NCBI GenBank assembly: GCA_977020255.1 | Contig: CDROCS010002727.1 | Span: 496,001-560,000 of the forward strand | Source: Obrimoposthia wandeli | Lineage: Eukaryota | Length of the DNA stretch: 64,000 bases | Reading direction: 5' to 3' | In this document: one piece after another, positions 6,297 to 63,941 of the stretch | Layout of the letters: each line of letters starts with the position of its first letter | How positions within the stretch are numbered: the first letter of the stretch is position 1 | Translations under genes and position numbers: made by a program | The notes under the pieces: model-generated | Seen by the model: the letters and a program-made list of their open reading frames with translations, nothing else | The model's database searches: none | What the model was told of the DNA's origin: nothing

Positions 6297-8147
6297 TGTT
6301 AGATTTAGGAATTGAGAAATTATTAAAAAATTAAATAATTTATACTAAAATAAAATCCTTGAAAGCAAGGTTGAAAATTAAATATTTAGAAATTAAGTTA
6401 AAATATTAGGACTAAAATAAGGGGTAAATATTAAGAGGACAACGAAGGTCGTGTGTAGTGTGTTGTATATAAAGGTTAATTAGAAAATATTAAAGTGCAA
6501 AAAGAAATCAGCAAACAAAAAATTAGATTACCCAACTACGAAGAAATTATTCAGTCAACCACGTCGTCAGTCAATCAATAACGAACGTCAACAATTCCAC
6601 GTCAGCAACAGCTGTTTCGTGAGGTGAGTGACGATTTGTAATTCAGAAACTAACCATTGTCTTACAGGACTGCGAAAAGGGAGAGAAGAATAACTGAGTC
6701 AATCGATTTACAGAAATCAGCCAACCAGAGGAGCAAGACTATATATGTCTGAAATTATTATTATTGGGAAATAGAAATAACAATCATTGTCAAAAAAGTA
6801 GACGTAAGAAGAGGAACCATTCAAAAGAAAAAGAGAGAAGAAGAACAGACGCCACAAATTAGCCACAGATTATCAATACAATCATCATCTCGATAATTGC
6901 AGCACTCTTCCGAATTACGGCAAAACAGAGACGAATTGCAGCAAGAAAACAAGAAAAGTAAGAAAACCGCGACCTCATTTAGAAAAATTAAAAAAGGATT
7001 CGTGCAGAAACTGCGTCGGATATCGAGTTCTCGAGTTCACCGCTCTTGACCCGCGAACTTACGGAAGGGAAACCAGGAACCCCTAGACTCTATCTTTCGC
7101 TGCAGATTGGAAGGTGAGAAAAAATTGTTAGAAACTATATTGGATTCGCTAAGCGAAAGTTTTGAGACATTTAGTCTGATTTTGCTAATTTGAATTTTAA
7201 TAATTGTTTTGGGACATTTAGTCCGAATTTGTTAATTTGAATTTTAATAATTGTTTTGAGACATTTAAGTCCGAATTTGCTAATTTGAATTTTAATAATT
7301 GTTTTGAGACATTTAAGTCCGAATTTGTTAATTTGAATTTTAATAATTGTTTTGAGATATTTAGTCTGATTTTGCTAATTTGAATTTTAATAATTGTTTT
7401 GGGACATTTAGTCCGAATTTGTTAATTTGAATTTTAATAATTGTTTTGAGACATTTAAGTCCGAATTTGTTAATTTGAATTTTAATAATTGTTTTGGGAC
7501 ATTTAGTCCGAATTTGTTAATTCGAATTTTAATAATTGTTTTGAGACATTTAAGTCCGAATTTGTTAATTTGAATTTTAATAATTGTTTTGAGACATTTA
7601 GTCCGAATTTGTTAATTTGAATTTTAATAATTGTTTTGAGATATTTAGTCTGATTTTGCTAATTTGAATTTTAATAATTGTTTTGAAGCACTAGTCTGAA
7701 TTGTTAATTTGAATTTTAACTAAACTGAACTATTCCTAGTTAGAGCCACAGCTCTCTAAAATCAACCCCTATTTTCAGAATACGACTCTAGTAATAGAAA
7801 CAAACATAAACTAAAATCGATACGTGGTTCATCCCCACTTGTTGTAGAGACTTACAGAAGTCTTAGGAATTTTTACGATACTTTTTAGAAAATACGTACA
7901 TAAACGTATTGTTGTGTTTTAGTTTCGTGAGTTACCAATAAACGATTTCCTACATTAGAACAAGTTGTTTTTGAACCCCTCAGATTAAGAGACGTCAAAC
8001 CAAACACCTTCAGATAAGCAATAGAGATAGGCAACCATAACACTAAGTAGGCCACGACCAACTTTAAGACCTGCTTCTATTCGAACTCACGTTGGGGCCC
8101 TCCGCACACAAGAGGATCTATACAAGTCTCGTATAGAAACCCCAACA
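6297..8147 (+). mobile_element. Long LTR (~1.85 kb), likely the 3' LTR of a large retroelement carrying the ORFs at 1-6033
   Basis: TGTTAG...CCCAACA termini. Both ends are homologous to 61875-63941 (reverse strand), and the 3' end to 34850-34912, which is followed by a tRNA PBS. Confidence 0.8.
7160..7720. repeat. Minisatellite inside the LTR, 47-48-bp unit, about 12 copies
   Basis: Unit ttttgagacattta(a)gtccgaatttgttaatttgaattttaataattg, head-to-tail with no spacers. Confidence 0.95.
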
Positions 8148-8191
8148 ATTTGTTCGCATACATGTTGTACTAGTTAATACAGCCTTATTAA

Positions 8192-18231: not shown

Positions 18232-18758
18232 TCAGGCGTAGTTGCCCTTGTAACGGGATTCACGGCGATGGAGCAGCTGACAGAGCGGCAGAGACTCGTA
18301 TAGAGAGGGACAAATGATGGAAATCTGCTTGTCGAGTTCCGAGTAGATGATGGCCAACTTCACCAGTGTGTCCGGGTGGTAGCTGTAATATATCTTCATC
18401 TGGAGGAAAAAGAGCCGCAGCTGGTGTATGAAGTGCTCGTAGTCATGGTAACGGCCATCATGTACTGCTTGTCCTATTTGTTGCAGAGAGAGCAGTTCGT
18501 GTTTGTACAAGCCTGTGTTCTCGAGAATCGGCCGCAACAAAATCGAGCTGTACCGATGCTCCTGAACCATCCGTGTTAGGTTGCGCATAACTTTCTTTTT
18601 GCTCTCATTCACCGAGCACGAGCCGCCACTGCTGCTGCTGACGGGAGTCACTCCTCCACCCCCAGCTACCGCTGAAGACGACATCGACGTTGGCAGATCT
18701 TCCACCGCAGACACCACCGCCACCGCTGCACACATAAGAGGCTCGTCACACGGGAATG
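18232..18758 (-). CDS. BRD8: BRD8-like gene, last exon (divergent bromodomain)
   Basis: KKVMRNLTRMVQEHRYSSILLRPI...LSLQQI...FIHQLRLFFLQMKIYY resembles the BRD8 bromodomain (WRAAANHRYANVFLQPV...MFQNAVMYN). Acceptor ttctcagatag gives the phase 1 needed by the previous exon. Confidence 0.75.
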
Positions 18759-20937: not shown

Positions 20938-21475
20938 AGAAGTATAAAGTGTCGGTTCTAAAACAATAGCACACAAAGCCCCCCCCCGAACAAGGCACAA
21001 AGAACAAAGCACATCTGGAATTCGCTTAGTCATACAGATGTGCTTTGTTCCTTGTGCCTTGTTCGGGGGGGGGGGCTTTGTGTGCTATTGTTTGAGAACC
21101 GACACTTTACGTTTTGAAATTTGATTGGTCTTATGCGTCACTTACGATTATGTAGGTTAATATTCTGTAACATTAAGTATATAGTTCAAAAATTTTAATT
21201 CAAAATTAAAAAATTAAATTAAAAAATTAAAAAATTAAATATTGAAATTAAAAAATAAAATATGGAAATTAAAAAATTAAAATTTTAATTCAAAAATGAA
21301 ATATGAAAAAATTAAAATTTTGAAATTAAACACAATTTACCGTCCCAAATTTTTATTTGCAACTATTTAATTTACTTAGTACTGCGACCTCATTCCAGGA
21401 GTTAGACTGCCCCGCATAACCGGACCGCTATCGCAGTTTTTATCATAAGAAACGTTATTGTTTATAGTAGGAGTC
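20938..21475 (+). repeat. Left TIR: 165-bp hairpin (20945-21109), AT-rich tract and 55-bp structured motif
   Basis: Reverse complement of 30439-30970, with a few substitutions and indels. Confidence 0.95.
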
Positions 21476-21530
21476 CATATTTATATAATGAAGAAAGCAA
21501 AGTAACATCGATAAATATATATTAGCACAA

Positions 21531-22310
21531 TTATAAGCGAACTTGTCCATCAGTAATTTTCCAGATTGGTTTATGAAGACCTGTACAGTTGATTTTGTAT
21601 CCCTGTATTGAAATGACGATCATCCACTTGAGTCCAGTTCCCATATTGTCAACATTAAAGTCGTGATCTCGCATGAAAAGATTAGGATCAGCTCGAATTA
21701 TTATATGATTCCCAACTATAATGTTGAGATGCATCGACGCGAAAGTTTTGTTAAGATCATCAATATCTGACGGATTTAATCTATGTATCTTGAAATCGTA
21801 TTTTGACTTATTCAGAGCCACCGGAAACATGAATCCATATATGATTGGAGTCTTCAAAAAATTCATTTGCCAGTTATAAAACATAACCGGCTTGGTGTAC
21901 TTCAAATTGTTAGACTCAAATATTACACCTGATGGTCTATTGTTAATGAACGGTTTCTTATGTTTGTGTGTAGAAACTATATCATCAATAAAGAGATCCT
22001 CATTTGTTGCTTGCTTCTCAAAATTGATAGTCTTGGTTTGTTTGTGGTTGTTGCTTGTCATAGTTTGCTTCTTTGGTTTTGATATTAAAACTACATCATC
22101 ATCATCGGTATCCACATCTGTGTCTGTAAGCCTTGTTGGTGGGGGCTTCTCGAACTTAAGAGATTTAGTTTGTTTAGAGTTCATATCAAAATAATGAATT
22201 CTATACCAAAAGTGGTAGCTTATATATATCATCATACTCGATTCTGATTGGATAATCTTTAGCTTAAAAATTTTATATATAGATTGGGTTATTTCCATTA
22301 ATTCAATCAT
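21531..22310 (-). CDS. Element ORF A, unknown (probable start MNSKQ at 22183); possible ssDNA-binding/OB-fold protein
   Basis: Intact ORF with an acidic/basic N-terminus and a beta-rich C-terminus (KWMIVISIQGYKIN...KPIWKITDGQV). The function is only a guess. Confidence 0.55.
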   Translation of the reverse strand: MIELMEITQSIYKIFKLKIIQSESSMMIYISYHFWYRIHYFDMNSKQTKSLKFEKPPPTRLTDTDVDTDDDDVVLISKPKKQTMTSNNHKQTKTINFEKQATNEDLFIDDIVSTHKHKKPFINNRPSGVIFESNNLKYTKPVMFYNWQMNFLKTPIIYGFMFPVALNKSKYDFKIHRLNPSDIDDLNKTFASMHLNIIVGNHIIIRADPNLFMRDHDFNVDNMGTGLKWMIVISIQGYKINCTGLHKPIWKITDGQVRL

Positions 22311-22800
22311 GAATCTTGCAAATATTAATTATAAAGGTAAAGTTAAAGGAGACATCAGTCACTTACCCTTCAAAACCGGGAAACCATGTCAGTACGTGCA
22401 CAGGTGTAAGGATTATACCCTTATAATCTTCCGTTCAGGTATGTTTTTATGTTAGTTAGTTAGTTATTTATTATTAGGAGCATGCAGGATAATGGGTTGC
22501 AAGAAACATATTACTACAACTATGCTCAAGTGTCCATTTAGAATAAAGATTGATCGTATTCAATCAGTAACGGTTACTGTCGATTTAGGTAAGAAGGTGA
22601 ACCTATACAAGTTGTCTCAAAAGTGTGGAGCTGCATGCATGTTCGAACCTGAGTTGTTTCCTGCTTTGAGGTTTACAAAACACAATCCTCTGTGCGTCAA
22701 CATATTTGCAAGCGGGAAAGTGGTCATACTCGGTCTCAAGGATTTGGATTATCACTTTGATGTGACTTTGATAATAACTGATATTCTACTTTTGATATAA
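22309..22800 (+). CDS. Minimal TATA-binding-protein-like gene, two exons (22309-22438 and 22478-22800)
   Basis: Removing a 39-nt GT..AG intron gives YTLIIFRSGACRIMG (TBP repeat 1, cf. ALIFSSGKMVCTG). Repeat 2 reads FEPELFPAL...VNIFASGKVVILGLK (cf. YEPELFPGL...LIFVSGKVVLTGAK). Confidence 0.88.
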
Positions 22801-22842
22801 ACAATAAATTTTAGTTGAATTTTTATTCTTACATGATTTGAA

Positions 22843-23121
22843 ATGCTAGTTGATTATATACTTCATTATACAACTGTTGATGATGTTTTAGTTAGACGAA
22901 AAGTAGGTTATTCTAGAATGAAAGTTTTACACTGGAAATATAGACCGGAGGCTAAGGAAGCTTTAGGTACAGTTGTTAAAATTATTAAAAATCGACGTAA
23001 ACGTAAAGCAAGTGAAGCAGCACAAACGGTTGAACCCGAAACTAAAAAGCAAGAGGGTAGTGGTAGAAAGAAAGCATCTAGTATAAATAAACGAAGAAAA
23101 CAAGGTACAATATTTGCTTAA
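22843..23121 (+). CDS. Small basic protein, candidate virion core/DNA-condensing protein
   Basis: Arg/Lys-rich 92 aa immediately upstream of MCP, containing QEGSG (GxG, a possible protease site). A syntenic relic lies at ~57510-57780. Confidence 0.5.
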   Translation: MLVDYILHYTTVDDVLVRRKVGYSRMKVLHWKYRPEAKEALGTVVKIIKNRRKRKASEAAQTVEPETKKQEGSGRKKASSINKRRKQGTIFA

Positions 23122-23123
23122 TA

Positions 23124-24386
23124 ATGGCTTGTGGTAAATCTGAATTATGTATTTTTGATCGAGCTTTGCCCCAGGTAGTTGTAAATAATGGTAGCTTTGA
23201 AGATATATATCCAACAAACAATATTACCGGAACAAGAACATCAGAGATTCTGTTTAAAATCCAAGTATCAGATATTGAGTACTTAGATTTGAATGATACC
23301 TTGTTGTTTGTGAAAATAAAAGTAACGAAAACTGATGGTACAGAAATAGCTGTTGCAGATAATGTGGTCCCATCAAATTTCTTGATGCATTCCCTATTTA
23401 AAAGCATAGATATAACAATGAATAATACTGTAGTATAAACCCATCCTCAATATGCACAAAAAGCTATGATTGAAACCATACTAAACTATAGCACAGACAC
23501 TAAAGACACTTGTTTGTCGAGTATAGGTTATGATGATGATGAAGATAAGCGTAAAGGTTGGGCTGCTCGCTCAAAAGAAATTGACTTGTGTGGGACTCTT
23601 CGATCTGATATTTTTGAGCAACCAAAGTATCTCTTACCTGGTGTGTCTATCATGGTAAGACTTGTACCTAATAAATCTATGTTTAGTCTGAACTACGGAA
23701 CGACTCTATCGCGAATCATATTTATTGAAGCTAAACTTAAAGTCAGAAGAGTCAGAGTTGAGAATGATGTTTTAATGGGACAAAATATTGGTCTTGAATC
23801 TAGGAATGCTGTATATCCCTATACTCACAGAAAGCTAATGTATCATACCTTAGCCATCGGTTCTACGAGTTTTTACAAGGATCAAGTGTTTGATGATGAA
23901 CAATTGCCTAAATTTGTGTTGATTACGTTGCAAGCAGGTGAAAAACTTATCGGTAATGGTGCTACAGACTCTTCAACATTCGATCATTCTAATGTTAACA
24001 CTATCAGTCTTGCTAGAAACAGTGATTTTAACGAATCTTACAGTACAAACTTGAAACAGGTGAAACCACCTTTGCATATGTCCAATCTATCATTAGAAAT
24101 ATGGGTAATTTGGATAAGAATATAAACAATGGCGTATCACTGGATGAATTCAAAACCAAATATCCATTTTCCACGTATCACTGGATGAATTCAAAACCAA
24201 ATATCCATTTTTCACGTTTGTTTAGCCCCTGACTTTGATATCACGCAAAACCAATTAGCAAAACAGGGTAATTTACGCCTTGACATCAAGTTTCACAAGT
24301 CATTAACAGTCCCAACAAACGTACTGATTTACGGGATTTTTGATTCTGAGTTTGAAATAACTAAAGGCCGACGTGTGATTGTATGA
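23124..24386 (+). pseudogene. Maverick major capsid protein (double jelly roll), disrupted
   Basis: CGKSELCIF...EILFKI...EYLDLNDTLLFVKIKV...HSLFKSIDIT...IETILNY...DIFEQPKYLLPGV...KLKVRRV...LPKFVLI...FTFVLAPD...GNLRLDIKF...VLIYGIFD. In-frame TAA at 23436, frameshift near 24052, 41-bp duplication at 24133-24216. Confidence 0.9.
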
Positions 24387-24767
24387 AGTGAGTTTTTTTA
24401 ATTTATGTTTTAAGATTTTATTAACAACAAGTAATGTTCAGGTGAATGAAATAACTAGTTTGCTGCTCGGACCGCGATTTAAGGGTGTATACCCGTTGGA
24501 AAAAATCCCAACATTAACGCCTAGATGATATATTGTCAATACACTGACCTCAAATCTTCCTGGAGAACACTGGATTGCGTTATTCGTGAGACAGAATTCT
24601 GTACATGTGTATGACCCTCTTGGAGTATACTATCCGGGAAAACTTATCAAGCATGTAGAGTCTCAAGGAAAACATGTATATTACAACAAAATTCGTTCTC
24701 AAAACCCACTGACTACTAATTGCGGTCCACTATGTATCTTATGGTTGTATGATCAAACTATATAAAT
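24383..24767 (+). pseudogene. Adenain-like cysteine maturation protease, spliced (exon 1 24383-24387, intron 24388-24431)
   Basis: MNNVQVNE...FKGVYP...IVNT...PGEHWIAL...YDPLG...QNPLTTNCGPLC gives the catalytic H, D, Q and C. One in-frame TGA. The ATG overlaps the MCP stop codon. Confidence 0.88.
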
Positions 24768-25182
24768 GTGATTGGTAATAAAATTTGTATTCAAAAAATT
24801 TGTTTTATAAATAGCTTCAACTGTCCCATCGAAATTTTAAAAAAAATTTGAGTTTTGATAAATTAAGAGAAAATTAATGGTGTGAATTATTTTTAAAAAT
24901 TCAAAGTCTAACGGTGTGAATATCGGTTATGAAAAAATTCATAATTGATTGACCGTAATTAACCTTTATGATCACGTGTGTAGCAACTAGGGAATAAAGA
25001 GTCTTTATTACACATTCCTAGTTTGTAAGTACACACGTGATGTGTGACGTGTGCATCTAGGGCAACAACTACACTTGTGATTGTGATTGTGAACCATATA
25101 TAAACAATCAGTGTAGATTCATTTATCAATTTAATCACAATTTCCAAAAAGTAAGTATTTTGATTTTATTATTTTTATTTAG

Positions 25183-28100
25183 ATGTCAAAAATTATTGTT
25201 GCTTTCAACAGCAATAAAAGATGGACAATGAAGCCTGTAGTGGCTGATGATGATGTCGACTTGGATGCGACACCTGTTAAGAAAGGTAATTTCAATTATT
25301 ATTATTTTATTCTTTAATTTAATTTAGCAATGCGGAGTGTCACACCACCAATATCAATTGCGCCATGGCTATCAACAAAATATGATGCTCCTACTAAGAA
25401 AAGAAGCCGAAAGCAGTCAATTTCTGATGTTGAAAAGAAGAAAATGTCAAAAGTTTTTTTATCTTCTGAGAAATCTGCTCAGTCTTTACTTCCTTCTTCT
25501 TCTTCATCTTCTCATTCTCATGTTTTTCCTCCATATGACAATCATTTAAATAAACCTTTTGGGGATATAAGGGATATAAACTCTAATTCTCCCGACTGCG
25601 ATAGCTGCCCGGTAACGCGGGGCAGTCTAACTCCTGGAATGGGGTCGCAGAACAAGTTAATTAAATCAAGAGGTTACCCCTTACTTTTTAAACCAGGGAC
25701 ACCTGTTAATTCGATAGAAAATTTCGACGTAAATGAGATATACTCGGGTTTTGAAATTATCCCGTTTAAAAAATATTTTAATCAGTTAAAGAAAGTTAAA
25801 AATCAAAATATTGATTTAAGTAAACTGAAAACAGAAGGTAGGAAAGGTAAACGATTTCGTCAGAAGCTGCGTAGATTGAGAAAACTACCAGCAGATATAA
25901 CAATATTTGCAAATTTATTAGGGTCTTGCAAACCCATTAATATTAGTCCAAGTCTGAAAATTACAGATCTGGCAAATAAATTATATGAAGTCTTTGGGAC
26001 TGATCAAATTTATGTTAACCGTAATGGCATGCCCTTTGAAAGGGAAGCTATTATCGGTGATGTTTTACATGAGGGGGCTATTATCCATGTATACCCTAAA
26101 CTTCGTGGAGGAAGTAACTTATGTACATTGTACAAGTATTGCACAAACGTTAATCATGGAATAGAATGTCATAGTGTAATGCTTAAATATTATAAATTTA
26201 AAAGCGGTTTTATTTGTCCACATTGTGATGTGTTATATTGTATTGACTATCAAACATTTTATAATGATCATAAGGATCATCTGACGTATTTTAAGTCTAA
26301 AAAGTTAGCATACAAACGTAAAGTAATGAGAGTACCAACAATAGACAACAATAAAATAGCAAAAACTAATAATTTTAATGAAGAGTTTGATGTGGTAGAC
26401 TCGTGGGAACCGGATAGTGTTGTAGAAATTGATACTTATCCTGAAGTTGTAGAAATTATTGAGCCTTTAACGTCTAATGAAATCTTAAATAATAAAAATA
26501 TTGATGAACTTATAGATCAGGACGAGTTTATAACAGAAAATGATTTTTTCGACTCACTCCTAACTATTACGGATGATGACTTTGATAATATTGTTACAAT
26601 TAATTCAGATAATACATTAACTTTTAACAATCAAATAGGAGGTGCAATTCAATCAAACCTTGTTTTTGATGTTAGTGGATTAAACATGCTTAAACTATAC
26701 ATTAACGATACTATGCTAACTGAACTTACTAGCAGTATAGATGTGTTTAGTCCCTGTAAAATACAGTTTGGTGTTGAAACCGAATTTGTCAATAACGAGG
26801 GTCAACATAAAACATGGCATGTAAGCTTTAAAGCAAATATTTTTGAACAAGATTTTATCACTACAAGAACAGTTGAGCTCAACAATAAAATTGAAATTTA
26901 TAAGGATATGAGTTCTGGATGGACAGTATTTAAAATTATGTTGGAATCCTTTAAATTTACTGCACTTTCAAACGTAGCAGGATCATCATTTATAAAAACC
27001 CCGGTTGCGCTTGCTAAAACACTATCTATAGTGAACGTAAATAATACTGATGATCAGTGTTTTAAATACGCTGTTCTCAGTATCCTACACTATAAAGATT
27101 TCAATCGAAACAGACAAACAGTTGAAAACTATAATGATTATTTAAATGAACTTATATGCGAGCCTGGTCCTATGAGGATAGACTGCATCAAGGCGTTTGA
27201 AAAACTCAATAATATAGCGATAACAGTATTCTCCTATAAACCTACAAAGGTAGAGCCTCATAGTAGTCATCTAGTGTTTAAAAACCCAGATGTTAATGTT
27301 ATTTATAGAACGAGTCTTAAGCAGTGCGAAAAAGTAGTAAACTTGTTGCTGTTGGAACAGAGCGGTAATTATCACTATACTGGAATTACAAATCTGAAGA
27401 CTTTTAAATACTCAAAAATATAATGTGCGTCTCTTTTGGTGTGAGAAATGTCTTTTTGGATTTCGAACCACGATTTCATATGACAAACACAGGGCACATT
27501 GTAATATTAATACAGATTTAACAACCTTGTTTACAATGCCTAAAGAGATCAAGTGTCAGTTTTCTGACTGGTCTAAATCTATTGCGCCACCATTTGTTGT
27601 ATACGCCGACTTTGAGTCAATACTCGAGCCACATAATACTTTCAAACACATTCATAAACCAATATCTATAGGGATGATTTTGAAAAACAACACTAATAAT
27701 TCAATACAATATTTCAGTTATTACGTTCTGCAGTGTGCTAAAAACTTTGTAGATAAATTAACTGAGTTGATAAATGGTGAAGTGGCAGATTTTTGGGTAA
27801 ATAGTATTAATGTTCCTATGGTTTTTACTAATAATGACATGTTGAACTTTAGAGATTGCACTAATTGCTATCTTTGTAAAAAATTAAACGATCGTATGGT
27901 TAGAGATCATGATCATATCACGGGTAAATACTTGGGTGCGGCATGCAACAAATGCAATTTAAGTCGCAAGTTTGCAAAGAGACCGGTTTTACCTGTGGTG
28001 TTTCATAACCTTATGGGTTATGACATACATCATATTTTAAAATATGCCGACTTGAAAGGTAAATTCTTTTCAATTATCCCTAAATCAAGTGAAAAGTTCA

Positions 28101-29910
28101 TGTCCCTCCGTATAGAGATGAAGAGGGGGACATTGAAATTCATTGATTCATACCTTTTTACAACGTCAAGTCTTGAATCCTTAGTTTCATACTTGCCAAG
28201 TTGTCCTTATACTACACAATACCTAAAACCTAATATTGCAACAAGTAAGGCGGTATTTCCATATGAATATATTAGTGGTGTTGATAGGCTTATGGAGACG
28301 CAGTTACCCGCTAAATCTGAGTTTCCTTCTCGAGTCACTGATCAACAATATAATGAAGCCCTAATGATGTGGACTGTATTAGGGTGTAATACTATTAAAG
28401 ACTACATGCTTGAGTATATGAAACTTGACGTGTATCTCTTATGTGATGTTTTTGAGACCTTTAGACAGAAAGTAAGGGATGATGATAATCTAGAGGCGCT
28501 CAATTTCTTTAGTATCCCTGGTCTCAGTTGGGCTAGCGCATTAAAAACATTAGAGTATGATGTGGATTTATTGCATGATCCCGAAATGTATAACATGTTT
28601 GAGGCAGGGATACGGGGAGGGATGACTTTCATCAATAAACATTACGTTAAAACAACAGATGAAACATTCCTCCTATACATTGACATAAATAACCTATATG
28701 GCTGGGCCTTGAGTCAACCGTTACCACATACAGATTTTACATGGGTATATGACGGTTTTGAAGCGATAATTGAGCTTATAACTGAGAGGGATATTCACGG
28801 TAATATGCAGGACTTAAGTCTTAAAGAACATGGATACTTGTTGGAAATTGATTTACACATATACCCATCAGTATTCATGATAAACTTGATGACTTACCGA
28901 TTGCGCCTAATAGAGAAATCCCTCCCGGCTCAAAAGCTTCAAAGCTGTTGATGACCCATGAGGATAAAAATAATTACATCATACACTCACAACTACTACA
29001 ATTTTACTTGTTTCTGGGTGCAGAAATTAAACAAGTGCATAGAGCAATAAAGTTTCATCAAGCTCCTATATTTAAAACATATATTGATATCAATAGCCGG
29101 AAACGGGCAGAGGGTACTACTACATTTGATAAAGAGTTTTATAAACTCAAAAATAATTCAATATATGGTAAGATAGTGGAAAATCTTAAAAAACGTAAAG
29201 ATATCCGTCTTACCAAGAATGATCGTCAGTTTACTAAACTTGTTTCAAGCCCTTGGTTTAAGAAGCATACCCAAATAACCGACAATCTCAATCTTTTATT
29301 TATGCAAAAGAAAGAAATTTGTCTGGATCGACCATCATATATTGGTCAAGCTGTGTTGGACTTATCTAAACTACGTATGTACCAACTACAGTATAGTGAT
29401 CTTGACCGGTATCATAAGCAATATCATTGTGATATCAACATAGTTGCAATGGATACAGACTCGTTTTTCTTAGAGTGTAAGCATATAGATAAAGATGTCC
29501 TCTTAAAACAAATGATTAAAGATCAGATGTTAGATACGAGTAATTACCCGATCACACATGAGTTATTTAACGATTCTCATCGAAATGTGATTGGAAAGTT
29601 TAAAGATGAAAGCAAGGGGACAGTGCTTTATGATGAATGGGTATTTCTGAAACCTAAATGCTACTCATTGAAAACGAGTATGAGGGCTAAGGGTATCTCC
29701 CTTAAACAAACCGAAATCAGACATGAGCATTACATAAAGTGTTATGTTGATGATGAAATTATAACTGCCGGTCAGACACGTATTTTATCTCGTAATCATC
29801 AATTATTTACAATGTATAATGATAAAATTGCGTTAAGGTGTTATGACGATAAAAGGGTTAGGCTTGAGAAAAACAAATCCGTCGCATATGGACACTATAG
29901 TCTAAGATAG
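25183..29910 (+). pseudogene. polB: Protein-primed family B DNA polymerase polyprotein with an N-terminal ubiquitin-like domain; two frameshifts
   Basis: ATG 25183 joins ORF 25330 through a 42-nt intron (25286-25327). Motifs: SSGW...GSSFIKTP...DQCFKY, DHDHITG...AACNKC, FHNL.GYD, FIDS, FPYEY, YMKLDV, GIRGG, YIDINNLYG, KLKNNSIYGK, MDTDS, GKFKDE, KPKCY, RAKG, DDKR. Frameshifts near 27410 and 28868. Confidence 0.93.
25897..26112 (+). other. Ubiquitin-like domain (72 aa) ending in LRGG, inside the pPolB ORF
   Basis: ITIFANLLGSCKPINISPSLKITDLANKL...GAIIHVYPKLRGG follows the length and hydrophobic pattern of ubiquitin (MQIFVK...TLHLVLRLRGG). Confidence 0.75.
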
Positions 29911-30109
29911 GTGTATATAAAATCTGGGGTAACCTCTTGAAAGTATTAACTAATATCCTTCTTATTTTTAATGTGATAGTATGTATCTTTTTAAATGCAA
30001 TAGTATGTATATATTTTTAATGCTATAGTATGTATATATTTTTATTGATGTTTATTTTTAATACATTGTATGTATCATAACCATGTCTTGACTTCCTACT
30101 AGCTACTCA

Positions 30110-30421
30110 TTGGATAATTTAATCAAATTCTCTATAAATATATACACATTTCAATCAATCAATTTCTCATTATTTCAAATGACTACTTTTAAAGAAAAAT
30201 TGCAAGCTCTCTATGATAACCTGAGCCCTACCTTGATGGCCCAGTATACTGAAAAGTACTTTAACTTATTTGTTGCACCAGAACTTTTTGTCTCAAGGAT
30301 TGAAGAACTTTATATGTATCACCTGTTTAATGGAGACTTTAAACCTAAAGTTGCAACAATCATTAAAATAGAAGAAGAAGAAGAAAGCATGGATTGTGAC
30401 AATGAATATAATTATGTATAA
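30110..30421 (+). CDS. Small element ORF of unknown function (probable start MTTFKE at 30179)
   Basis: Intact ORF ending just before the right TIR; acidic tail. Confidence 0.45.
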   Translation: MDNLIKFSINIYTFQSINFSLFQMTTFKEKLQALYDNLSPTLMAQYTEKYFNLFVAPELFVSRIEELYMYHLFNGDFKPKVATIIKIEEEEESMDCDNEYNYV

Positions 30422-30438
30422 ACATAGACTTTTTACTA

Positions 30439-30970
30439 GACTCCTACTATAAACAATAACGTTTCTTATGATAAAAACTGCGATAGCTGTCCGGTTATGC
30501 GGGGCAGTCTAACTCCTGGAATGAGGTCGCAGTACTAAGTAAATTAAATAGTTGCAAATAAAAATTTGGGACGGTCAATTGTGTTTAATTTCAAAATTTT
30601 AATTTACATATTTCATTTTTGAATTAAAATTTTAATTTTTTAATTTCCATATTTAATTTTTTTAATTTCCATATTTAATTTTTTAATTTTGAATTAAAAT
30701 TTTTAATTTTTAAAATTTTTGAACTATATACTTAATGTTACAGAATATTAACCTACATAATCGTAAGTGATGCATAAGACCAATCAAATTTCAAAACGTA
30801 AAGTGTCGGTTCTAAAACAAGGCACACAAAGCCCCCCCCGAACAAGGCACAAGGAACAAAGCACATCTGTATGACTAAGCGAATTCCAGATGTGCTTTGT
30901 TCCTTGTGCCTTGTTCGGGGGGGGGGGGGCTTTGTGTGCTATTGTTTTAGAACCGACACTTTACACTTCT
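30439..30970 (-). repeat. Right TIR with hairpin at 30798-30964
   Basis: Reverse complement of the left TIR; hairpin loop tatgactaagcgaattc. Confidence 0.95.
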
Positions 30971-31331
30971 AACGTCACCTTTTTTTACTTCATTTAATAC
31001 GTACAAGTCAAAAATTGAAACGAAAATTTTCACTAAACGACCTCCTCAATATATCCCAGTACGAATGATATTTGCTCTCGACTAACCCTCTTTATCCTAA
31101 ATCAATCTCCCAAACAATGAAATTATTTCCACAAAAAAAGTCGTAATTAGTCAAATTTAGGTCAAAATCATTGAACAATTTTATTTTTTAAATAATTTGG
31201 ACCTATTTGAGAACACTTAAAAGGTTTCAACTATAATATATATCTTGGATCCTAAAACGCATCTAGATGGACTGTGTATATTCTATAATTGGTGTACAAT
31301 AAACGGAGTAATCAGAGCAGACAAAACTCAC

Positions 31332-31828
31332 TATTGCTTGTGTTCCGTTCATCGTCCATCCAGGCCTGGAACCGCAGATCCAACTGAGACTTTTGTTGCT
31401 GCTGCCCACAAATGTCGAGCTCACCAAGTCTCCAACCAGCAATCACACCGTTATCAGAACCAGCCCCCAACTCCTCATCCTCTGACGCCGTCAACCTCCT
31501 ACCCACATCACGCCACTGGCCAAGACCCACCGCACACAGTGCTTCCTCATACGACAAAATCTTCACCGGACCATTACCAGCCACCACCATGTCCTGACTC
31601 TCCTCCATAGACTCGTCCTCGCCGCCGCCTCCACAACCCCCAATGTCACAAGAGTCGCCTAACTCCTGCATGTGATTTGTCATCTCTCCGGCATCTTCCA
31701 GCGTCTCTGTGGCGTCACTGTCACTGTCATCTTCATTGGGTTGACTAGAGCCTCCTCCGAGGCGCTCAAGGATCTCATCATCAAATACACCGCTGTCTCC
31801 CGCCATCACCACCGTACCATCGCTTAAC
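31332..31828 (-). CDS. BRD8: BRD8-like gene, exon 2 (acidic, low complexity)
   Basis: Acceptor ttttttgtctag (phase 2, matching exon 1) and donor GTGAGT (phase 1, matching exon 3). GC-rich open frame. Confidence 0.65.
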
Positions 31829-57026: not shown

Positions 57027-58400
57027 ATGAAACTCTCAAATATCAATTATAAAGCACATACTACTCAATATATTGGAAATCTAACATTTAGTACTACAAA
57101 ACCAAGTCAATATATAGAAAAACATAAATATTATACTTTAGTTATTTTCAAATCAAATATTAATTTGAGATATTAATAGGAAGTTGTCGATTAATGAGGT
57201 ATAAGAAACCAGATACAAACTAGAATTTACAATATGGTATACAAATAGAGAGAAAATAATCAGTAACAATGGATATTGGAAAGAAAATCAATTTACATTA
57301 TTTATCAATGAAATTAGGATCTGGTTGTATATTCAAACCGGAATTATTTGCACTCAGATTAAATAAATATAATCCATTATGTGTTAACGTATTCTCAAGT
57401 GGAAAGATTATAATAGTTGGACTTAAAGATTTGGATTATTATTATGATGTTAATTGTTTCAAATATATTGCTTTTGTTATAAGCGTATAATGTATAATCA
57501 AAATTTGAAAATGATTAATAATAATGATGAATTAGTTGAGAACACAGTTGATGAAAAAATGTCCGGAACTATATAGGGCACTTGGTATTTTTCAGAATTA
57601 TAAAATTCAATCGAGGTAATATTCGTTCAATTGTCAGAAGTTGAGTAAATCAAAATATCAGATACAAGAAAGAAGTTCCGAAAAAAGAAATCTGCATCTA
57701 AGAGACCATCACAAGCGGAAAGTAAGCAAGAAGGCAGTGATAGTATAAATAAAAGATGGTAAAAAGATACAATAATTGAGTAAAATGACAACCGCATGTG
57801 GTAAATCCGAATTGTGTTTGTTTGATAGACCAGCCCCTCAATTTATAGTTGAGAATGGATGTTTTGAAGACATTTATCCGATTAATACAATGAACGATAA
57901 CAAATATATCTGAAATTGAATTTAAAATTGAATTTAAAATTTCAGGTTCTGATGTAGGATATCTTGATTTGAGTGATACAATGTAACATGTAAAAAATAA
58001 AGTTGTTAAAAAGGACGGTACACCACTAAATGAAGCTGATAATATTACACCAGTTAATTGTTTAATAATATTACACCAGTCATGTTTCATAGACTGTTTA
58101 TAAACTTGGAAGTTTCATTGAATTCTGAGAAAATAGAAGGTGGGAATGATATGTAGGCTGTAAAATCAATGATAGAAACCATTCTTAATTATGGTACCGA
58201 TACTAAAGAAATATTTCTTTCATGTATTGGATATGACTCTGATCCAGATGAATGTAAAAAGTGGATTTCTCGATCAACTGAGTTTTAAATGTGTGGTTCA
58301 AAGTTCGATCTGATTTTTTTGAGCAACCTAAATATATTTTGCTTGGTATTTATGTGAGATTGGAATTTGTATTTAATAATCCTCAAGTAAGCCTTTACAT
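57027..58400 (+). pseudogene. Relic B of the TBP-Maverick family: TBP-like gene, small basic ORF and MCP N-terminal half
   Basis: MKLSNINYK...YTLVIFKS; KPELFAL...CVNVFSSGKIIIVGLKDLDY; MTTACGKSELCLFDRPAPQ...FEDIYP at 57785. Same gene order as the intact element. Confidence 0.85.
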
Positions 58401-59160: not shown

Positions 59161-59489
59161 GCAATTGAAACTTTTAGAGTTTTAATTCTATTTTACAAAC
59201 CGTTTGTATGTCAAAGTTATTAATATTATCATGTGCTGATAATTTTGAAATTATTATATTCTGTTATAACATGTATGGCTATCTATTTAAATCAAAAGAA
59301 ATTTAGCAAGAATGTCCGTTCACCTATTATTACAATAAAACTGTATATAACTGTCAACTATTTCTGCTGTAAAAATAACGCTTTTTAATAAATTTAACAA
59401 AAAATAGAGTAAATAAAAATTTATTTATTAATTTTCAGAATTAAGCAAAAATTTCGTAATATCAAATTAATTTAATAATATAATTTTGT

Positions 59490-60880
59490 TGATTTGGAAT
59501 TCAATATTCAAGGCAATGACGATAGTTATTTGGATTTGAAAGATACATTGCTACATATCAAAGTTAAAGTAACTAAAGCTGAAAGAACTGAATTACAAAA
59601 ATAGTGTTGTTAGAGCCAATAACTATATGTTTCATAAAATGTTTAAAGATAGTTTACTAACTTTAAATAATATGAAAATTGAAAAAGGAAATAACTCATA
59701 TTGTCAAAAGGTATTGCTTGATACTCTATTCAGTTTATTAAAGAAACAAAAGAAACTAATTTACGATGTAATAGTTTTGATTCTAATGAAAGCAAATTTG
59801 ATTCTTGGTAAGCTAAATCTAAACCTTTTGAGATTTGTGGATCACTACGATTGGATTTCTTTGATCAACCAAAGTATCTTATACCGGGAGTAAATGTACA
59901 TTTACGATTAATAAGAAATAATTTTAGTTTTTCATTGGTAACAACAAATGTTGAAACTAAACCTATTTTACAAATTTTAGATCCCAGATTGTATGTTAGA
60001 CGAGTAAGGGTTAAAATTTCTGTTTTTATTTGTCGTCAATTGGGGTTGTAAATTCAAAATGCAGTATATCCAGTTAGAAAAACGTAGCTTATTAGTTATT
60101 CAAAATATAAAGTGCTATGGCAATGTTTTAAGATCAATTATTCGGAGACTATTCGTTACCTAAATTGATTATTGTATGATTTCAATCTAAAGATAAACTT
60201 TCTGGGAGTCTTATTACTGATAACTCAACTTTTAATCATTTTAATGTTTCTGATATAATTTTAACAAAGAATAATGATTTTCTAGAAACATATACAATAA
60301 ATTTCGATAATGATAACTATTGTTTTGCTTATACAAAATCACTGATACGTAATATGGAAAATGTGGATAGAATTCAAGCTATAGTATTACGTTTGATGAT
60401 TTTAAAAATAGTTATTCTCTTTTTACATTGGTTTTGGCTTCTGAGTTTGACATAAACACTACTTAAATACTAAAGAATGGGAATCTTAAACTCAAAATAA
60501 AATTTGCTACTGTTCTTGTTTCTCCTACAAGTGTTTTAATTTATGTAATTTTTGATTCTGAAATCCAAATTACAAGAACTAAAACTGTGATTATATGAAG
60601 TACTTTTTTAAATTTATAAAATTATTAATTATTTATTTTTAGTACTCTAGAAATTATAAAATCAGTAAAAATTCTGATCGATGATGCATTTATTGGAGTT
60701 TATTTGCTTGATAAAATACCATATCTCTGTGATGGTGGTTAAATCATCAATACTCATACAAATAATCTCCCAGATGAACATTGGATTGATATTTATGTTA
60801 ATAACAGTTAAATTAAAGTATGTGATCCTCTCGGTTTCTATTATCATCTTAAGCTGGTATCATTTATTTCTAAACAAAGT
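59490..60880 (+). pseudogene. Relic C of the TBP-Maverick family: MCP and spliced protease
   Basis: LEFNIQG..DSYLDLKDTLLHIKVKV, DFFDQPKYLIPGV, GNLKLKIKF...VLIYVIFDSEI; then ATGAA/gt..ag/T giving MNTLEI...FIGVY...NLPDEHWI. Confidence 0.85.
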
Positions 60881-60915
60881 CTTATATATATAGACTATTT
60901 TTTTTAAATATTACA

Positions 60916-61865: not shown

Positions 61866-61874
61866 AGATATAAA

Positions 61875-63941
61875 TGTTAGGGTTTCTATACGAGGCTTGT
61901 ATAGATCCTCTTGTGTGCGGAGGGCCCCAACGTGAGTTCTAATAGAAGCAGGTCTTAAAGTTGGTCGTGGCCTACTTAGTGTTATGGTTGCCTGTCTCAA
62001 TTACTTATCTGAAGGTGTTTGTTTTTTATGTCTCTTAATCTGAAGGGTTTAGAACAACGTTTTCTAATGTAGGAAATCGTTTATTGTTAACACACTAGAC
62101 TAACACAACAATACATTTACGTACGTATTTTTCTAAAGGTGCCATTAAAAAATTCCTAAGACTTCTGTAAGTCTCTACACAAGTGATGGATGAACCACGT
62201 ATCGATTTTTTATGTTAAGGGTGATCGAGTTTGTAGAGTCGTTCCTTTTAACCATGAATAAGCAAGTTATAGATTTTTCAAATCGTTAAACTTTAATGTC
62301 CGAGCTTTAATTTATGTCAAAAAAATGTTATATTTTTAAACTTTTACTAAATTGGAAGACAACTTTAACTTTATATCAACAAATGTTATAATGCAAAACT
62401 TTTACTAAATTGAAGGCAAATTTCAACTTTATATCAACAAATGTTATAATGCAAAACTTTTACTAAATTGAAGGCAAATTTCAACTTTATATCAACAAAT
62501 GTTATAATGCAAAACCTTTACTAAATTGAAGGCAAATTTCAACTTAATATCAACAAATGTTATAATGCAAAACTTTTACTAAATTGAAGGCAAATTTCAA
62601 CTTTATATCAACAAATGTTATAATGCAAAACTTTCACTAAATTGGGGCAAACTTCAACTTTATATCAACAAATGTTATAATGCAAAACTTTTACTAAATT
62701 GAAGGCAAACTTCAACTTTATATCAACAAATGTTATAATGCAAAACTTTCACTAAATTGGGAGCAAACTTCAACTTTATATCAACAAATGTTATAATGCA
62801 AAACTTTTACTAAATTGAAGACAAACTTCAACTTTATATCAACAAATGTTATAATGCAAAACTTTCACTAAATTGGGGGCAAACTTCAACTTTATATCAA
62901 CAAATGTTATAATGCAAAACTTTTACTAAATTGAAGGCAAACTTCAACTTTATATCAACAAATGTTATAATGCAAAACTTTCACTGAATTGAAGGCAAAC
63001 TTTAACTTTATATCAACAAATGTTATAATGCAAAACTTTTACTAAATCGAAGGCAAACTTCAACTTTATATCAACAAATGTTATAATGCAAAACTTTTAC
63101 TAAATTGAACTTTATATCAACAAATGTTATAATGCAAAACTTTTACTAAATTGAACTTTATATCAACAAATGTTATAATGCAAAACTTTTACTAAATTGA
63201 ACTTTATATCAACAAATGTTATAATGCAAAACTTTACTAAATTGAGGGCAACTTCCACTTTTGCGGTATTTATACCTTTAATTACTGATATCGGAATAGA
63301 GTTGCTCGGAATAGATTGCTGCAACTGGAGAATTAGTTTCCTTGCTATAGAATATAGATTGAGTTACTGTCGCGGTTCCGATTCTACAAAATCGATATTA
63401 AGTTAGTTCAACTAACCAAATTTACTAACCGGGGGAATTTCACTGGTTTTTTCTGCGTCGCCTTTTGTCTCTGCTTTTCCCTCTATCTAGATTTTTTCTG
63501 CAAGAATTAATAAATAAATTAGACTTATATAGTCTACCTCTGGGCTGTCAATCACTTGGCACTGGGCTTCTGCTAATTAGGCTTCTTTCTTCTGGACAGC
63601 TATAATTCCTAATAGGTTTCTGTCAATCAGTTTCTTCTTGACAGCTGTAATTCCTACTTAGGTTTCTGTCAATCAGTTTCTTAATTAATTTTCTTAGGCT
63701 TCTTGTATTTCTTTTTAGTTACTCTATTTAATTTCTTGCACTTTTACTAGTTAATTAATATCTTATATACTAACGCATTATACACGACCTTCGTGGTCTT
63801 CTAATATTTGTTCTTATTTTAATTTTAATAATTTAATTTTGATTTTAAAATTTATTTAATTCTTAACCTTGTTTTCAAGGCTTTTCATTTTACTATAAAA
63901 ACAATTAACTATTTAATTTCAATCAAAACCTAATCCTAACA
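61875..63941 (-). mobile_element. Long LTR (~2.07 kb), same family as 6297-8147, opposite orientation; the element body continues beyond the window
   Basis: On the minus strand TGTTAG...CCCTAACA. The flank at 63942-63990 is the reverse complement of 6249-6296. Confidence 0.85.
62335..63260. repeat. Minisatellite inside the LTR, 59-bp unit (the last few shortened to ~48 bp), about 16 copies
   Basis: aacttttactaaattgaaggcaaa.ttcaactttatatcaacaaatgttataatgcaa, head-to-tail with no spacers. Confidence 0.95.

Follow-up and report, generated by a model that had tools for sequence, protein, structure and literature searches.

A predicted three-helix, tRNA-like RNA fold lies in both TIRs and inside the polymerase gene of a Polinton/Maverick element of Obrimoposthia wandeli, and structural comparison of its natural copies gives good support to its maintenance by compensating changes across three Polinton families. 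The motif is read here, at slightly better than even, as a standalone tRNA-like small non-coding RNA gene, predicted from its modelled fold. It is likely a candidate for a small viral RNA gene that has not been described before, the modelled fold being absent from Rfam. All comparative evidence comes from this one genome, and "the window" refers to the whole 64,000-nt stretch that was analysed.

The host element fits a Polinton/Maverick in its pPolB gene, its 548-bp TIR (two sides 95% identical) and its 6-bp target site duplication. Its main features in the window are the following.

20938-30970, no strand: Polinton/Maverick copy of family F1, with AG...CT ends and a 6-bp target site duplication
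20938-21475 and 30438-30970, no strand: left and right TIR, each with a ~165-nt terminal palindrome
22492-22800, plus strand: single-repeat TBP-like gene of the element (PF00352, E 2.6e-13)
25183-29910, plus strand: pPolB gene with DNA_pol_B_2 (PF03175, E 6e-20) and Endonuclease_7, frameshift-broken in this copy; promoter box at 25099-25105

In the excerpted account of 10.1101/2023.08.22.554363, Polintons/Mavericks with pPolB2 are 13-25 kb long, with TIRs, 5-8-bp target site duplications and a gene set of pPolB with an HNH-type insertion, INT, ATPase, PRO and capsid genes. F1 differs in adding the TBP-like gene and the motif, no RNA gene being mentioned in that excerpt (10.1101/2023.08.22.554363). 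Three full F1 copies from the same genome are ~15 kb long and have extra ATPase-, integrase- and minor-capsid-like ORFs, named by eye from motifs; the window copy is without ~5 kb that includes these ORFs and most of a 415-aa ORF, with the deletion junction at ~22945. The near-perfect palindromes of ~165 nt (20945-21109 and 30800-30963) lie just inside the ends, have a 17-nt asymmetric centre and are shorter in F3, a sister family described below. By eye, the N-terminal region of the polymerase (~25870-26110) resembles ubiquitin up to a terminal LRGG, and the residues after it are rich in Cys and His.

The motif copies in the window, with the boxes upstream of them, are as follows.

21381-21437, minus strand: tRNA-like motif, TIR type, outward-pointing in the left TIR, 95 nt past ORF A; motif model 61 bits
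25595-25651, plus strand: internal-type tRNA-like motif in the pPolB gene, read in frame within its low-complexity 5' part; 58 bits
30477-30533, plus strand: tRNA-like motif, TIR type, outward-pointing in the right TIR, past the last 80-aa ORF; 62 bits
56714-56769, minus strand: fourth, diverged copy, TIR type of sister family F4/5; the decayed Polinton fragment whose left end it occupies lies at 57.2-58.4 kb
21460-21466, minus strand: TATAAAC box of the left copy, 29 nt ahead of its first stem
30448-30454, plus strand: TATAAAC box of the right copy, 29 nt ahead of its first stem
25566-25581, plus strand: two hexamers resembling TATA, one 29 and the other 20 nt ahead of the internal copy

An earlier note on this DNA had described three copies of a 55-bp unit, at 21382-21436 (minus), 25596-25650 (plus) and 30478-30532 (plus). 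All three are confirmed, as are the reading of the internal copy in frame with the polymerase ORF and the transcript-sense orientation of the motif, which is true of every family examined; the 57-nt limits listed above are better boundaries, and the fourth copy, the upstream TATAAAC box and the tRNA-like layout had been overlooked. The closing and inner stems proposed there are supported, as is the small 3' stem after a shift of one base in register, which gives three pairs closing a 7-nt loop. The T or G given as a variant at position 11 does not describe the family: the G of the left copy is absent from the first 100 TIR copies among the matches listed, and is thus taken as a private mutation. 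The fourth copy scores 35.7 bits (E 4e-9), the next model match in the window having an E value of only 1.8, and an ungapped scan of the window found no further site with at least 29 of 55 bases in common with the motif. The two TIR copies share 50 and 51 of 55 bases with the internal copy, and since both are part of one TIR, only the internal copy is an independent occurrence.

Across the 1.35-Gb genome, exact matches to a 31-base part of the motif number 2991 (control 0), and anchors placed outside the motif recover 1810 TIR-context and 991 internal-context copies, making the internal copy an F1 family trait. The earlier note had raised the prospect of an internal copy missing from other family members; it is present in about 1000 F1 members and in the sister family F4/5. 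The TIR and internal types of F1 differ at four fixed positions. Among the matches listed, the first 100 of each search as read by eye, motif positions vary in at most ~2-3 rows each, while three positions of the 30-nt spacer split the family (~7, 29 and 50 of 100), a small hint from sequence variation that the motif may be constrained relative to the spacer.

The same fold appears, in different sequence, in two sister Polinton families and one unplaced locus (F6). DNA of the MCP and protease genes is 66-68% alike between F1 and its sister families, F4/5 among them. F3 was reached by a degenerate pol pattern; its right TIR has a G+C-rich motif at the place equivalent to that in F1, past the last small ORF, and the F3 motif gives 253 pattern matches and is present in both TIRs, with no internal motif in the one F3-type copy that retains that region. 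Short F3 derivatives (L185; L180-L181; L182-L184) keep both TIRs and the motif and have lost pol or all genes. The F4 internal type was found by a scan for a TATA followed by G+C-rich sequence, and has five matches in the 5' region of pol, two of them of identical sequence. F5 and F6 were found by a pattern limited to the box and arm 2; these searches gave 222 matches against 70 in the control, chance matches included, and 330 rows with duplicates against 0.

One natural copy, on C1804, links these types, as it carries the motif in the left TIR, the 5' exon of pol and the right TIR, with the F5 type in both TIRs and the F4 type at the 5' end of pol. The two types are far apart in sequence; from their co-occurrence in this copy they are assigned to one family, F4/5, as its internal and TIR types, and the three-position layout is common to F1 and F4/5. 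F6 is a single locus (L167:7725-7779) with a TATA box at 29 nt, and may mark a further motif-bearing lineage; beside it, a pair of inverted repeats flanks a pol fragment that groups apart from F1, F3 and F4/5. A tree built from 32 pol pieces places F1, F3 and three of the four rows labelled F4/5 in one clade (99/94), with F2 outside; the fourth such row lies 5 kb from its motif, groups elsewhere and may belong to another element. F2 is known from three copies (C147, C919 and C1824) with pol 45-56% identical; neither ungapped and TATA+GC scans nor the motif model find the motif in 60 kb of these copies, whose ends may be lost. The absence of a model match in F2 suggests that Polintons can manage without the motif. 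Among viral contigs, two exact-type patterns gave no matches and no related pol locus was found, and the two matches to a general pattern were not scored by the motif model at the matched place.

The layout shared by the types begins with a 6-7-bp closing stem, two unpaired bases and a 4-7-bp arm whose loop opens with a near-invariant GG, and ends with a 2-4-nt linker, a 3-4-bp arm with a 6-7-nt loop and the closing strand. The linker is 2-4 nt in F1, F4, F5 and F6 and is replaced by a small tetraloop hairpin in F3, and the loop of the T-loop-like arm retains a pyrimidine at the equivalent of tRNA position 54, a purine at that of 57 and an A at that of 58. On 19 natural copies of five types, RNAalifold unaided returned the closing stem, the second stem and the short 3' stem. 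In the named structure of these copies, 94% of 296 cells are paired, compared with 30-51% in slid controls, and 10 of 16 pairs have two-sided change. None of 500 shuffles reached the covariation score or the paired share, 10 of 500 reached the two-sided pair count and 135 of 500 the number of pair types; these figures are not probabilities, as the copies were selected by a descriptor requiring the helices (0 matches in 665 kb of shuffled sequence) and represent only five independent types. The closing stem, which was absent from the patterns that found F5 and F6, has six core pairs that are rewritten between types and paired in all five, and decayed copies break pairs. Loop 2 takes insertions at one place: most F3 copies have a hairpin capped by UUCG there, and F4 internal copies one capped by GAAA. 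Both tetraloops, together with G-U wobbles, indicate RNA of one strand, and with the compensating changes between families they give good support to the RNA element that the earlier note had suspected. Single-sequence folding returned the three helices in six of eight copies (z -3.4 to +0.3), and no covariation was seen by eye at kissing contacts between loop 2 and the T loop.

Inside pol, the predicted fold sits within a tolerant part of low complexity. In 30 F1 loci chosen for identity over the motif, the frame is open for at least 97 codons upstream of the internal motif in 23, and the F4 internal motif is read in the same pol frame, which stays open through it in three of four copies. Translation through the internal copy gives peptides that differ between the families, which argues that the constraint is not on the protein, and 150 pol relatives (~35-51% identical) gave no match to the peptide encoded across the motif. 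An AUG in the T arm of the F1 motif is in frame with pol and is not kept in frame in F4. Upstream, two inferred pol introns (25151-25182, 32 nt, and 25286-25327, 42 nt) are AT-rich, run from GT to AG and join the upstream exon in frame with the pol ORF.

The box upstream of the motif recurs before the protein genes of the element. In one F1 copy (C25, L035+L036) there are 19 TATAAAC sites, 17 on the plus and 2 on the minus strand, of which eight precede the ATG of an ORF of at least 70 aa by 31-46 nt, two lie 29 nt before the TIR motifs, one lies at the 5' end of pol ahead of the two inferred mini-introns, and eight are without an assigned gene. TATAAAC(A) is thus a candidate Polinton promoter box from its placement in the sequence, perhaps read by the TBP-like protein of the element. 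In the window, TATAAAC(A) also occurs at 22797, 23079, 25099 and 30134, 31-46 nt before the ATG of most element genes. The inner TIR edge lies ~10 nt past the box, and the box with the next bases is common to F1, F3, F5 and F6 upstream of the TIR motif despite differing spacers.

TIR motif copies begin 29-33 nt past TATAAAC, and 17-32 nt past it in decayed F5. In loci not selected for TATA, and with one misclassified row reassigned, the stem has a TATAAA hexamer 22-35 nt ahead of it in 12 of 13 F1 TIR copies, 36 of 50 F3 copies and four of five F4 internal copies, against 0-2 in control windows; in F5, with spacing of 17-32 nt, the count in the 22-35-nt window is only two of 11 (control 1.8). 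The F1 internal copies have TATAAA at 20 nt in seven of seven and a second perfect hexamer at 29 nt in only one of seven, and older F1 internal copies (L151, L132) have the full box at ~29-30 nt. The promoter of ORF A (22363-22430, minus strand) has a TATA box, then a partial look-alike of the 5' half of the motif (a GG-loop stem) leading into a splice donor; this look-alike has no motif-model match.

Behind the motif, the signals are less uniform. F4 internal copies have a T4 run 3 nt behind the stem, as close as in 3% of shuffles, and in six other copies the T runs lie 14-63 nt behind it (22-94% of shuffles); with runs no nearer than in shuffled trailers in six of seven copies, they do not establish a Pol III unit. 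The trailers have little folding stability (-5 to -14 kcal/mol per 90 nt), and no ORF follows the TIR copies. In F1, an AATAAA lies 23 nt behind the TIR motif, which fits a 3' UTR location. In four of seven F3 and F5 TIR loci inspected (L069, L090, L103, L178), an AATAAA lies 40-55 nt upstream of the box, so in F3 and F5 the upstream mRNA can end before the motif. Four sequencing runs cover genes and spacers evenly, with no GT..AG joints among those listed, and thus behave like DNA.

The predicted RNA starts as a tRNA does, with 6-7 covarying acceptor-like pairs, two unpaired bases and an arm with an invariant or near-invariant GG in its loop. It has no anticodon stem-loop with a 7-nt loop, the 2-4-nt linker or the small F3 hairpin standing in its place. 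The T arm of a tRNA is a 5-bp stem with a T-psi-C loop; the motif stem is 3-4 bp, and only pyrimidine 54, purine 57 and A 58 are kept. T-loop position 56 is G, C or A according to family, so the tRNA G19-C56 pair cannot be general, and no B box is kept because the T arm has a different sequence from one family to the next. The spacing at positions 8-18 may resemble a degenerate Pol III A box. ARAGORN predicted no genes, and the Rfam tRNA models gave no match. A search of Rfam 15 up to E 10 with the element and four motif types found only chance matches, plus miRNA-precursor models on the terminal palindromes. The layouts of twister, hammerhead, pistol, hatchet, hairpin and permuted-HDV ribozymes, fitted by eye, failed against F3-F6. 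A search of the open literature found no prior RNA gene or such motif in Polintons or adintoviruses, and in the excerpt of PMC11071296 the ribozyme idea concerns anelloviruses.

Among viral small RNAs, the adenovirus VA RNA is described in the excerpt of PMC4378190 as a ~160-nt Pol III product with a type 2 internal promoter that binds PKR. As a candidate gene for a structured small RNA in more than one copy, the motif resembles VA RNA I/II, also in its predicted pairing of 5' and 3' ends and in coming from a linear dsDNA element with a protein-primed polymerase and a jelly-roll capsid (PMC4378190, same excerpt). It differs in its length of 55-70 nt, its upstream TATA box, its lack of a B box and its other fold. 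The MHV68 TMERs have A and B boxes and pre-miRNA hairpins freed by RNase Z, and their tRNA-like part alone is reported to rescue pathogenesis (excerpts of PMC8223928 and PMC4378190). They share with the motif a viral tRNA-like domain, at the 5' end in TMERs, in several copies, whereas the motif is without a B box and an anticodon arm and its trailers are weakly folded (PMC8223928, PMC4378190, as excerpted). BocaSR of bocavirus is also a small viral RNA of a small linear DNA virus, acting at the terminal hairpin origin, and differs in its 140 nt, its Pol III transcription, its VA-like fold and its origin in a parvovirus without its own polymerase (excerpt of PMC11194592).

For a standalone RNA gene, the TATAAAC box, probably helped by the TBP-like protein of the element, would start transcription at or just before the closing stem, making the first strand of that stem the 5' end of the RNA. 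The acceptor-like stem would then stack on the short T-loop arm, and the invariant GG of the second arm would dock on the T loop, forming a tRNA elbow without an anticodon arm. The 3' end would come, with less assurance, from RNase Z-type trimming behind the stem or from a T run. The polymerase could be II or III, with the mRNA-making one favoured because the box is shared with the genes of the element. The least certain steps, which are doubtful, are that the RNA would accumulate from three gene copies during the active phase of the element and, in the manner of VA RNA and TMERs, would bind small-RNA machinery or sensors of tRNA shape in the host. Within this reading of the motif as a standalone RNA, a host-decoy role argued by analogy is itself rather unlikely. 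The best reading by analogy is that the RNA would have the mode of action of VA RNA, or of the tRNA-like domain of a TMER, while falling outside the definition of either. More tentatively, and short of an even chance, it may form a small-RNA class peculiar to the Polintons of this animal lineage, an anticodon-less tRNA mimic with a TBP-read box and three copies, one of them nested in the pol frame, blunting defence that senses tRNA shape or small RNAs.

An unlikely but live alternative is a cis-acting processing signal like mascRNA, with host RNase P and/or RNase Z cutting read-through transcripts at the fold. Such a signal would end the two terminal mRNAs, the internal cut would keep the polymerase low, and the hexamer would be a poly(A)-type signal; the 3' end formation guessed at in the earlier note survives in this form. 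TATAAA is a known poly(A)-signal variant. The motif is always in sense orientation, past the terminal ORF or within pol, the distance from hexamer to stem varies from 17 to 34 nt, and the AATAAA 23 nt behind the F1 TIR motif is also consistent with processing. In common with mascRNA and menRNA, the motif has a size of 55-60 nt, an acceptor-like stem of 7 bp, a loop 2 whose two invariant G match the conserved pair of the D-like loop, and a T-loop-like arm (excerpt of PMC11693755). In that excerpt, mascRNA has four arms and a 5-bp T stem with a C pairing to a D-loop G, and is cut from a long RNA (PMC11693755), whereas the motif has three arms (four in F3), a 3-4-bp T arm, a variable position 56 and an upstream promoter box. 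Besides this short T arm without C56, a processing signal is at odds with the same box standing at promoter distance before eight genes and at the 5' end of pol far from upstream stops, with the separate AATAAA upstream in F3 and F5 loci, and with the lack, by eye, of a U-rich/A-rich triple-helix element upstream.

It is less likely still that the fold is a promoter-proximal, TAR-like leader, forming the 5' end of longer transcripts and recruiting an elongation or translation factor. These transcripts would run outward through the TIR and the terminal palindrome, and the internal box would give a shorter pol transcript. This agrees with a motif that begins at about the expected transcription start behind the same box as the protein genes, with the T-arm AUG in frame with pol in F1, and with the partial arm-2 look-alike in the ORF A promoter. 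The in-frame AUG is lost in F4, though, the TIR copies have no ORF following them, the look-alike is unscored by the model and the trailers are weakly folded, all of which argue against a leader.

A self-cleaving ribozyme of an undescribed class is a slim prospect. The compact fold, its invariant unpaired bases and a three-way junction with a T-loop-like motif would suit one, but no Rfam ribozyme family matches the four types at E up to 10, which leaves the self-cleavage suggested earlier without a known counterpart. An HDV-like reading, with a stem-base wobble and a C-containing linker, partly fits F1 and fails F3-F6, and a site directly behind a promoter gives little reason for cleavage.

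Marginally less probable is a site acting as DNA: it would serve single-stranded replication intermediates as an origin, packaging signal or boundary element, or form a TFIIIC-type barrier. The location at the inner edge of both TIRs and the possible A-box likeness of positions 8-18 speak for it; against it, wobble G-U pairs and UUCG/GAAA loops belong to RNA, the families keep no B box and the orientation follows transcription. The RNA-type tetraloops likewise argue against the internal origin or packaging signal that had been proposed. The removable 39-nt intron proposed for the internal copy is hardly credible: it has GT...CAG with a branch-like pentamer and a length in F1 divisible by three, but its G+C content is 62% with no pyrimidine tract, against ~10-12% in the two inferred introns of the gene, the TIR copies carry the identical GT and CAG, and the same stretch in F4 measures 46 nt, has a poor donor and does not end in CAG.

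If the motif is a standalone RNA gene, it would be the first known from Polintons and a counterpart of VA RNA in the integrating relatives of adenovirus, with a fold outside Rfam. Polintons are annotated almost solely by their proteins, and a conserved, covarying, promoter-linked predicted RNA would mean that they have structured RNA parts as well. The motif model can be used for finding counterparts in the Polintons of other animals, the candidate gene bears on the origin of viral tRNA-like RNAs such as VA RNA, and the TATAAAC box offers a first handle on Polinton transcription and the role of the TBP-like protein.

Elsewhere in the window, the element is inserted in older sequence in which, by eye, a bromodomain-like ORF (18232-18735, minus strand) stands on one side and an acidic ORF (31312-31806, minus strand) on the other. 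Decayed older Polinton fragments lie at 57200-58400 (F4/5) and 59480-60900, with remains of TBP, capsid and protease genes. Tandem arrays at 62204-63256 (58-bp) and 7111-7727 (47/48-bp), and inverted arms at 7813-8150 and 61872-62209, ~54 kb apart, are probably other repeats.
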